A DNA stretch of 64,000 nt, from IMG/VR virus record IMGVR_UViG_3300025066_000007; one strand, 5' to 3'. The notes below the pieces were generated by a model. That model did not search any database, was not told the DNA's origin, and was given only the letters and a program-made list of their open reading frames with translations. This document shows, piece after piece, positions 10,163 to 37,807 of the stretch (position 1 is the stretch's first letter; each line of letters starts with the position of its first letter). The stretch comes from a virus (Duplodnaviria; Caudoviricetes). The position numbers and the translations under genes are program-made.

Positions 10163-10838
10163 TTATATTGTAATTTCACCTTTGACGAACCTACTTAGCT
10201 TTTGAGTTTTTCCGGTTCGATGATCGGTCACCTTGTCTCGCTGAACTTGATAAGTCCTTATCTTATCTCCTCTCATTCCAGAGCCAACCTGAGAGGCTCT
10301 CAGCTCAGACCTTCGTCTGCTGGCTGCGCTCCTTTCGATCTCATATAGCTTAGCTCGAAGAAGCCTTAGAGCATAGTCTTTGTTCAAGTGTTGTGAACGC
10401 TCTGATTCGCATCGAATGCTTATTTGTGTTGGAATATGTTTCAGCTGAACGGCAGAGTCAGTTACATTTCTATGCTGCCCGCCCGCTCCAGATCCACGGC
10501 AAGTCTTCCACTCAAGGTCTTTCTTGTCGATCTTTACTGATGCTCTTTTTGGCTCTGTTAGAATTGCAACCGTTATAGTCGAAGTGTGAACTCTGCCTCG
10601 TTTGTCAAGGGGAGAAACTCTTTGCCAGCGATGGCCTCCTGCTTCTTTCTCAAAGATCTTTAAAGCGTTCTTTCCTTCGATCAAAGCTATGCTAATTCCT
10701 GGGCGTGATTCTATTATTTTCAGGCTAAAGATAATTTCGGCGGCAGACCTTGCCGTAAATGCCGAGTTGATCTTTAACAAGAAGTTTGCTTTCTTTTCCG
10801 CCTTCAGCGGCTCTAATCTCTAATATAATAGAATTCAT
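10163..10838 (-). CDS. Class I peptide chain release factor-like protein (no domain 1), expressed via +1 frameshift; about 224 aa
   Basis: AAGGAG...ATG at 10838 gives MNSIILEIRAAEGG...NYL; +1 shift at CTT TAG C into SLKIIESRPG...GGHRWQRVSPLDKRGRVHTS...GAGGQHRNVTDSAV...IRTY. Confidence 0.85.
10724..10733 (-). other. prfB-like +1 frameshift site TAT CTT TAG C
   Basis: Joins two halves of a release-factor fold; matches the prfB UAU CUU UGA C site except that the stop is UAG. Confidence 0.75.
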
Positions 10839-10858
10839 CTTCCTTTTCTCCTTTATAT

Positions 10859-36208: not shown

Positions 36209-37807
36209 CTAATCTGCCGGCGAATCATAAATCGCTACTTCCGTAGTAAGCAGAATTCCGCCAGATGAAGCAGCGTTTTCAAGGCCGGTCCGAACGACCT
36301 TGACCGGATCGATGATTCCAGCCTCTACCATATCCTCTTTGAGAGAGCCCTCTAGGGCGTCAAATCCCATTAGAGCTGAACCAGAACTGATAATCTTTTC
36401 CATATGCAAATGATATTCCATTCCAGCATTTTTTAGAATCTGTATAAAAGGAGCCCTCATTGCATACCCCACAACCTCGCATCCAACGATCTCCTCTGTA
36501 GTCAAATTCGACGTTAGCTTAAAGGCCTCTAGAGCAGGTAGACAGTGAAGCAGTGCCGCGCCGCCACCAGGGACAATTCCCTCTTCAATTGCCGCCTTAA
36601 CAGCATTAATTGCGTCTTCCACCCTATCCTTCTTCTCTTTGACTTCCGCCTCAGATACTCCGCCTACTTTAAAGATAGCAATGGAACCAGTTAGAGCAGA
36701 CAACCTTTGCTTAATCGCAGCAATCTCATACCCCTCAAGCCTTGAGTCTTCCGCTCTAACCTTAATGGAATTAACACGCTCCTCTACAGAGGCTTCTGTT
36801 CCCGCTCCATCTACAATCGTTGTGTCGTCCCTAGAGACAACAACTCTTCGAGCAGAGCCTAGATCTGCTATCGTAACAGACTCAAGCGGAGAGCCTGCTT
36901 CGTTTGTAAGCAATGTAGCGTTGCAGACTGTGGCAATATCTCCGAGAATATCTCTTCGCATATCTCCAAACCCCGGCGCCCTAACCGCACAAGACTCCAA
37001 GGTCTTGCGTGCCTTATTTAAGACTAAGGTCTGCAGAGCCTCTCCCTCTACAGTTTGTGCAATAATAAGAAGCGGCCTTGCCGACTCTGCCGCTGCTTGT
37101 GCAACTGACATTATCTCAGATGTAAGAGCAATTCTTCCATCATACACCAGTATTAGCGGATTAGCAAACTCCACTGTCATTCTGTCTAAATTCGTTGAAA
37201 AAATAGGAGAGATATAACCTCGGTCAAATGAAAGACCTTCGGAATAAGAAACACTAGTTTCTGCTCCTGCAGACTCCTCTACCGAAATCAAGCCATGATC
37301 TCCAACCGCAGAGACAACCTTTCCAATCAAGCCTCCTAGCTTCTCATCATTATTTGCCGAGATAACCGCAACACTATTTATAATTTCCTCGCTTGAAACT
37401 TCCTTGGAAAGCTCTTTGAGCCTTGCGGATACAACTTCTACCGCCCTATCTATACCTCGCTTTATTAAGACTGGATTGTGTCCTGCTGCGACCATCTTCG
37501 AGCCTTCAGTGTAAATAGCTTGAGCCAAAACAGTAGCAGTAGTAGTTCCATCTCCTGCAAGGGAGTTTGTAGAAGAGGCAACGCTCTTGATTAACTCCGC
37601 TCCCATATTCTGTACTCTATCGCCAAGCGTAATTGCCCTAGCAACTGTTACTCCGTCTTTGGTAATTAGCGGCGGACCAAACGCCCTCTCTATTGCAGCG
37701 TGCCTGCCTCTCGGACCGAGAGTGGCCTTAACTGCGTTCGCAAGTATATCTAGCCCTTCCTGTAAACCAGCCCTAGCCTTTGTATCAAACTCAACCTCTT
37801 TAGACAT
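36209..37807 (-). CDS. groL: Chaperonin GroEL
   Basis: TLGPRG, ITKDGVTVA, AGDGTTTATVLA, PGFGD, GIVPGGG, GIIDPVKV; 532 aa. Confidence 0.95.
   Translation of the reverse strand: MSKEVEFDTKARAGLQEGLDILANAVKATLGPRGRHAAIERAFGPPLITKDGVTVARAITLGDRVQNMGAELIKSVASSTNSLAGDGTTTATVLAQAIYTEGSKMVAAGHNPVLIKRGIDRAVEVVSARLKELSKEVSSEEIINSVAVISANNDEKLGGLIGKVVSAVGDHGLISVEESAGAETSVSYSEGLSFDRGYISPIFSTNLDRMTVEFANPLILVYDGRIALTSEIMSVAQAAAESARPLLIIAQTVEGEALQTLVLNKARKTLESCAVRAPGFGDMRRDILGDIATVCNATLLTNEAGSPLESVTIADLGSARRVVVSRDDTTIVDGAGTEASVEERVNSIKVRAEDSRLEGYEIAAIKQRLSALTGSIAIFKVGGVSEAEVKEKKDRVEDAINAVKAAIEEGIVPGGGAALLHCLPALEAFKLTSNLTTEEIVGCEVVGYAMRAPFIQILKNAGMEYHLHMEKIISSGSALMGFDALEGSLKEDMVEAGIIDPVKVVRTGLENAASSGGILLTTEVAIYDSPAD

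Follow-up and report, generated by a model that had tools for sequence, protein, structure and literature searches.

A prfB-like CUU-stop junction in the RF1-type release factor gene of large phages

Frameshifting into the +1 frame at a CUU codon followed by a stop codon is a textbook trait of one gene, prfB. The invariable UGA at the prfB site is taken as proof that RF2 autoregulates its own synthesis. In a survey of more than 12,000 genomes, Prince et al. 2025 saw TGA at 98.6% of 8,164 prfB motifs and TAG at none, and obtained no evidence of programmed frameshifting in prfA (PMC12421855). According to Atkins et al. 2016, no stop-gated release factor gene of the UAG/RF1 kind was known (PMC5009743). 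Phage genes for RF1 and RF2 are listed in a survey of recoded phages, which makes no mention of frameshifting (bioRxiv 10.1101/2021.08.26.457843), and our full-text literature searches turned up no account of frameshifting in an RF1-like phage gene.

Here we analyze a release factor (RF) gene on the minus strand of a 64,000-nucleotide stretch of viral DNA (IMG/VR record IMGVR_UViG_3300025066_000007), which we refer to as the window. We consider it likely, with a probability of roughly 0.8, that this gene produces a 224-residue RF1-type factor without domain 1 by programmed +1 frameshifting at CUU-UAG-C, a reading for which there are no experimental or read-level data.

A release factor gene in two frames

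The window sits in a single contig of 211,453 bp with a GC content of 42%. Because genes for a baseplate protein, endolysin, GroEL (window 36209-37807, minus strand), SbcD and DNA ligase are present in this genome, its source is a large phage. The neighbours of the RF gene encode aldolase_II-like, DUF3310, DUF1360, HSP20 and KH proteins, with HSP20 and KH directly adjoining, and relatives of the RF gene derive from marine viromes. When DNA similarity to GenBank phages was searched, the sole match was the DUF3310 (SaV) gene of a Synechococcus phage. ORF statistics fit the standard code (code 11), and the seven tRNAs found in the 211-kb genome include no suppressor. In a crude gene call (n=219, with 205 genes on one strand), TAA terminates 102 genes, TAG 72 and TGA 45; thus, four in five genes end at a codon of the type read by RF1. 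Shine-Dalgarno (SD)-like cores are found before 40% of starts in this genome, versus 12% at random positions.

On the minus strand, ATG 10838..10836 opens a frame of 37 codons (10838..10728) with the product MNSIILEIRAAEGGKESKLLVKDQLGIYGKVCRRNYL. This open reading frame, ORF1, reads MNSIILEIRAAEGG...RRNYL up to the shift site and ends with TAT (10733..10731), CTT (10730..10728) and TAG (10727..10725), followed by C at 10724. Past the TAG, frame 0 closes again after just 10 further codons. The +1 frame is uninterrupted for 187 codons, from AGC 10726..10724 to TAA 10165..10163, and fusing ORF1 to this ORF2 at the CTT gives a protein of 224 amino acids. Scored with separate HMMs, family residues 1-37 receive 62 bits in frame 0 and the C-terminal part receives 290 bits in frame +1. 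The two-frame layout with a CUU-UAG-C junction at this locus is real, and its features are collected in Table 1.

Table 1. Features of the RF locus, in window coordinates
Feature	Position	Strand	Description
Ribosome-binding region of ORF1	10839..10853	-	AAGGAG 10853..10848 and AAGGAAG 10845..10839, including GGA 10843..10841; read from sequence
ORF1, frame 0, 37 codons	10728..10838	-	First strand and helix of RF domain 2, EIRAAEGG motif
Shift cassette TAT CTT TAG C	10724..10733	-	E-site UAU, P-site CUU, A-site UAG, +4 C
About 15 nt 5' of the cassette, site of GGAGG-N3-CTT in relatives	10734..10748	-	Here UGCCGCCGAAAUUAU, without SD
ORF2, +1 frame, 187 codons	10166..10726	-	Remainder of domain 2, GGQ domain 3, domain 4
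Decoding tripeptide SPL	10607..10615	-	Alignment of 84 sequences; RF1 = PxT, RF2 = SPF
GGQ peptidyl-tRNA hydrolysis motif	10475..10483	-	G119, G120 and Q121 invariant in the family
TAA stop of the full-length product	10163..10165	-	Read from sequence

Two claims of a first-pass annotation, made from the sequence alone, concern the start of the gene, and both held. One was that a strong ribosome-binding site (RBS) and the ATG at 10838 open the beginning of RF domain 2, which is supported by the sequence and by the HMM search. The other was that the existing annotation starts the gene in the middle of a domain. The annotated TTG start at 10780 is in the +1 frame, lies within ORF1 and has no RBS, and a start there would lose the family-invariant residues E7, E12, G13, G14 and Y28.

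In Pfam, the fused protein matches PCRF (PF03462) over residues 2-90, with 67 bits versus a cut-off of 24, and RF-1 (PF00472, the GGQ domain) over residues 99-207, with 114 bits versus a cut-off of 35; the GGQ motif is residues 119-121. The PCRF match covers only profile positions 100-194 of 194, and the domain-1 part is missing. Residues 4-221 align with solved RF1 structures, unbroken over the junction, and the match to residues 88-312 of T. maritima RF1 (1rq0) has an E value of 5e-49. Among NCBIfam models, those for RF1 score highest (228 and 218 bits), above RF2 (165), PrfH (97) and ArfB (41), and all scores are under the equivalog cut-offs. The prfA equivalog test itself failed, with 218.5 versus 423 for TIGR00019 and 228 versus 400 for NF001859, the match spanning positions 105-331 of 347. 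Identity to bacterial RF1 is 40-44%. By sequence comparison, then, the product is an RF1-like class-I factor with domains 2-4 and the GGQ motif, and without domain 1.

Codon-specific peptide release does not require domain 1, which has a role in RF3-dependent recycling (literature summarised in PMC1586002); a factor lacking it can therefore be active. In structures of RF1, the GG-acidic helix tip of domain 2 touches the first base of the stop codon. This tip is encoded by ORF1, from which we infer that a product of ORF2 only should not decode.

Conservation of the junction in viral relatives

A profile was built from full-length relatives, and 80 IMG/VR loci were kept of roughly 500 viral hits. 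The N- and C-terminal parts of each gene were located by separate HMMs on three-frame translations, and the junctions were tabulated. In the window and the 80 related viral loci (74 distinct relatives), 58 distinct genes, the window copy included, require a +1 shift. In every one of these the frame-0 stop falls at the same profile codon, 38, with CTT just before it, an agreement well beyond what chance would give. The identity of this stop, which we term the gate, varies: 42 genes have TGA, 13 have TAG and 3 have TAA. C follows the stop in 47 of the 58, among them all 13 with TAG. An SD-like element with the spacing found in prfB, GGAGG-N3-CTT, is present in 45 of the 58, with a predicted anti-SD duplex of about -10 kcal/mol. 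The element is weak or absent in 13, including L001 (-3.5 kcal/mol) and the window (+0.1 kcal/mol). Because SD-like cores are enriched throughout the window genome, the missing internal SD cannot be attributed to an SD-independent host. RNA structure near the site was also assessed, and the 121-nt fold is no better than shuffled sequences (z +0.81).

These data bear on the remaining structural claims of the first-pass annotation. The requirement for a +1 shift of the prfB kind at CUU-UAG-C held, given the CTT and stop at one codon in 58 of 58 genes, as did the claim that the internal SD is absent. The refutation it had proposed, that homologs are all in frame at this point, failed: 58 of 74 distinct genes are shifted, 13 of them at TAG. 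It could not have seen that the factor is of RF1 type without a domain 1, that the device is family-wide, that TGA is the commonest gate, and that the copies without an SD element are a minority (13/58).

Nine distinct genes are wholly in frame and free of stops. In a further 8 distinct relatives the frame is maintained but interrupted by one or two stops, located at profile codons 38, 39, 44 or 52 (loci L005:3001-3669, L007, L023, L064, L072-L075 and L080). In L005 the stop is a TAG at codon 38, exactly where other genes of the family frameshift. Genes neighbouring the in-frame-stop copies still terminate at the same stop codons, and for this reason these relatives look like readthrough-type gates, not recoded genomes. 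The junction is also visible in a large, independent protein database. Among the best 120 hits, 42 are full length and about 69 are truncated gene calls, with out-of-frame leaders that end in F-D/E, F-S/R or F-N/K, the +1 readings of CTT TGA, CTT TAG and CTT TAA, respectively.

A maximum-likelihood tree separates the short family, as a single clade, from bacterial RF1 (support 100) and places the gated forms within one well-supported subclade (support 98). TAG gates originated at least three times, and gate codons switch repeatedly. The window gene and L001 are a long-branched pair, and the window copy belongs to a small marine clade with a UAG gate and no SD element. Genes flanking TAG-gated copies end in TAG in 35% of cases, versus 24% for genes beside TGA-gated copies (Fisher p 0.03), a weak trend that was not corrected for phylogeny or GC content. 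A partial search of bacterial genome contigs yielded only canonical RF1 at 37-44% identity and is uninformative on the presence of the short family in bacteria.

Two large contigs bearing relatives (764 kb and 130 kb) show phage-like surroundings of unannotated small ORFs. In a marine relative, a homolog of ribosomal protein L7/L12 is located about 3.5 kb upstream of the frameshifted short RF gene (L175:1145-1516 and L176:1145-1516). As a component of the factor-binding stalk, L7/L12 is of interest in connection with an RF without domain 1.

Close to the window, conservation can be followed at the nucleotide level. An exact copy of the ORF2 product occurs on 13 contigs; two of these were compared and are identical over 801 nt, shift site included. 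A further contig copy, L163, differs from the window by one amino acid. The nearest diverged relatives, L001 and L002, have 72% nucleotide identity and keep CTT TAG C at the same place. Comparing ORF1 of the window with that of L001 in frame 0 shows 8 synonymous and 5 non-synonymous changes (dN/dS 0.14); for the same bases in the +1 frame, the corresponding counts are 1 and 12 (dN/dS 4.1). For ORF2, pN is 0.18 and pS is saturated. Within the window clade, purifying selection acts on ORF1 in frame 0 and on ORF2 in the +1 frame.

Two observations in these sequences stand apart from the junction. L002 is near-identical to L001 except for one additional G in a G-run (L002:3200-3215), which creates a second frame break; unlike the conserved CTT-stop site, this extra G is probably an assembly or sequencing error. 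In addition, the first 42 nt of ORF1 are nearly identical (2 differences) in the window (10797-10838, minus strand), L001 and L167, and the RF proteins of the three are just 56-77% identical overall. Selection on the 5' end of the mRNA or a recent exchange could each explain this pattern.

The decoding tripeptide of the window protein departs from that of its relatives. The PxT criterion of RF1 is not met, as the protein has SPL, which in the alignment of 84 sequences (74 distinct family members) is seen in the window only. The others have PPT, PPN or SPT, mostly PPT; the sister gene L001 has SPT. SPL is followed by Asp and resembles the SPF-D of RF2 (Ser-Pro-hydrophobic plus Asp), and the residues for third-base reading, Gln and His-Thr, are RF1-like. 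Given that SPL lacks the Thr of PxT, the window product might fail to read UAG, and its own gate might not close. Ser occupies the first tripeptide position in five genes, four of which are gated by TAG or TAA; these are few and non-independent. In L049, L058 and L023, a 4-residue deletion takes out the entire PxT loop (QE----KSGGRMQTS), before the HTS motif. These three genes are still frameshift- or stop-gated despite the deletion, and conceivably have lost codon-specific decoding.

Proposed mechanism and alternative explanations

The architecture of the gene, its conservation and the selection on both halves constitute the part of the frameshift reading that is shown. That the ribosome slips at all is an inference, as are the efficiency of slipping without an SD element, the response to RF1 level and the ability of the product to terminate at UAG and UAA. 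We propose that translation would begin at ATG 10838, proceed for 37 codons and pause with peptidyl-tRNA-Leu on the P-site CUU. During the pause the A site would hold UAG-C, a stop in a weak context. Fast arrival of a UAG-reading factor would lead to release of a useless 37-residue peptide. If termination were slow, the tRNA would re-pair from CUU to UUU, AGC (Ser) would be read next, and the full factor would be made. The yield of full-length protein would thus rise as the UAG-termination capacity of the infected cell drops.

In the established mechanism frameshifting competes with termination, so the yield is predicted to depend on the speed of UAG recognition. UAG is recognised solely by RF1-type factors. 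The first-pass annotation had claimed that synthesis depends on RF1 activity; this follows from the mechanism and is not demonstrated. The phage does rely heavily on UAG termination, with TAG closing roughly one in three of its genes. The efficiency of the shift may be low, by analogy with E. coli prfB, because neither an SD stimulator nor an unusual RNA structure is present. Simple self-autoregulation cannot be the general rule of the family, because most relatives are gated by UGA, which is not read by RF1. Phages may tie production of the termination factor they encode to the termination capacity of the host, a form of regulation that is inferred and not shown. Independent of regulation, the family is a natural series of UGA, UAG and UAA variants with and without an SD element, which could be used to test how termination rate, E-site codon and SD element set the level of +1 frameshifting. 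Annotators, in turn, gain a rule for rescuing RF genes that gene callers now cut at the junction.

The alternative that survives best, which we nevertheless regard as unlikely, is cross-regulation: the SPL product would read UGA and UAA, or all three stops, and the UAG gate would sense host RF1 only, so that depletion or blockage of host RF1 would turn the phage factor on. In its favor, SPL aligns with the SPF of RF2 and the next residue is Asp, as in RF2; the Gln and His-Thr that read the third base in RF1 are retained; the sister L001 has SPT, and four of the five Ser-first genes are TAG- or TAA-gated. Gate codons also change repeatedly on the tree, versus prfB, where TAG is never seen (PMC12421855). 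Against it, the tripeptide alone cannot give specificity, as RF specificity mutations lie mostly outside the codon-contact site (PMC5776981). Furthermore, the counts are small, the window gene and L001 are sisters and so not independent, and there are no assay data. A bolder version, that the protein is a natural hybrid decoder in which an RF1 scaffold with an RF2-like SPL has RF2-like or three-stop specificity, is likewise doubtful. If true, the hybrid decoder would be a cross-wired sensor, by which the phage takes over termination when host RF1 is scarce or disabled, and phages would be using interchangeable gates (UGA, UAG or UAA; frameshift or readthrough) to sense the termination state of the host.

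It is much less probable still that the gene is decaying or broken, with an extra base introduced by mutation or misassembly and no complete protein made. The absence of an SD stimulator or RNA structure at the site and the loss of the tripeptide Thr are compatible with decay, and the relative L002 does bear an error-like extra G in a G-run. However, 58 distinct genes share the cassette at one and the same codon. Relatives at 72% nucleotide identity still have CTT TAG C, ORF1 has a dN/dS of 0.14, ORF2 is strongly constrained, and 13 contigs share the ORF2 product.

We give similarly little credence to a two-polypeptide arrangement, in which the 37-residue ORF1 product and an ORF2 product, translated by reinitiation or from TTG 10780, act alone or assemble non-covalently. 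Its support is that gene callers annotate just ORF2, from the TTG. However, the +1 frame has no start codon at or after the junction, and no RBS precedes TTG 10780. The +1 leader 5' of the junction shows the pattern of change expected of non-coding DNA (dN/dS 4.1), and the relatives keep the geometry of the prfB cassette rather than any start codon.

Three further candidates were rejected: stop-codon reassignment, since reading TAG as sense fails to restore the frame (10 codons), code 11 fits and no suppressor tRNA is present; reinitiation at the junction, where the +1 frame offers no start codon; and, on general grounds, transcriptional slippage, for which a run of three Ts would be too short. 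Programmed +1 frameshifting remains the reading we prefer.

Comparison with known systems

The giant-virus RF gene mentioned in a sentence of a review (Atkins et al. 2016, PMC5009743) resembles the window gene in being a viral RF gene whose expression needs recoding, in that case readthrough plus frameshifting. It differs in encoding a eukaryote-type factor of an amoeba virus, and the protein family and the signals are unrelated. The RFs of recoded phages (Lak, Agate, Jade; bioRxiv 10.1101/2021.08.26.457843) are, like the window protein, phage-borne class-I factors, and are thought to tune termination; unlike those phages, the window phage has the standard code and no suppressor tRNA. PrfH (RF-H), a domain-1-less factor paired with RtcB, is also a short class-I RF that retains GGQ. 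However, the window protein scores 96.8 against the TIGR03072 cut-off of 166.65 bits, PDB matches to RF-H are far weaker than those to RF1, and the phage gene has no rtcB-like neighbour.

With canonical RF1 (prfA), the phage factor shares the signature of domains 2, 3 and 4, the GGQ motif and the Gln and His-Thr third-base readers. It differs from RF1 in lacking about 110 N-terminal residues (domain 1) and in having SPL in place of PxT. The frameshift gate is a further difference, as none is known in prfA (PMC12421855).

The closest counterpart of the junction is that of bacterial prfB (SD-N3-CUU UGA C). In both, a P-site CUU precedes an A-site stop with C at +4, reading continues in the +1 frame, and the gene concerned encodes an RF; the E-site UAU of the window is identical to that of E. 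coli prfB, and most phage relatives have GGAGG three nucleotides 5' of CUU, as in prfB. Measured against the criteria for a prfB-type cassette, the window meets those of a CUU-stop with +1 continuation and of C at +4, and does not meet those of a UGA stop and of an SD 3 nt 5' of CUU. The differences extend to the gene itself. The window gene is of RF1 type (NCBIfam prfA 228 versus prfB 165 bits), and the phage site is at codon 38 in domain 2, whereas that of prfB is at codon 26 in domain 1, so that the two positions are non-homologous. The stop in the window is UAG and the SD is absent, and the phage family as a whole uses all three stops. What is new here is a prfB-like cassette that large phages carry in an RF1-type gene, at a site not homologous to that of prfB, with UGA, UAG and UAA all in use as the gate.
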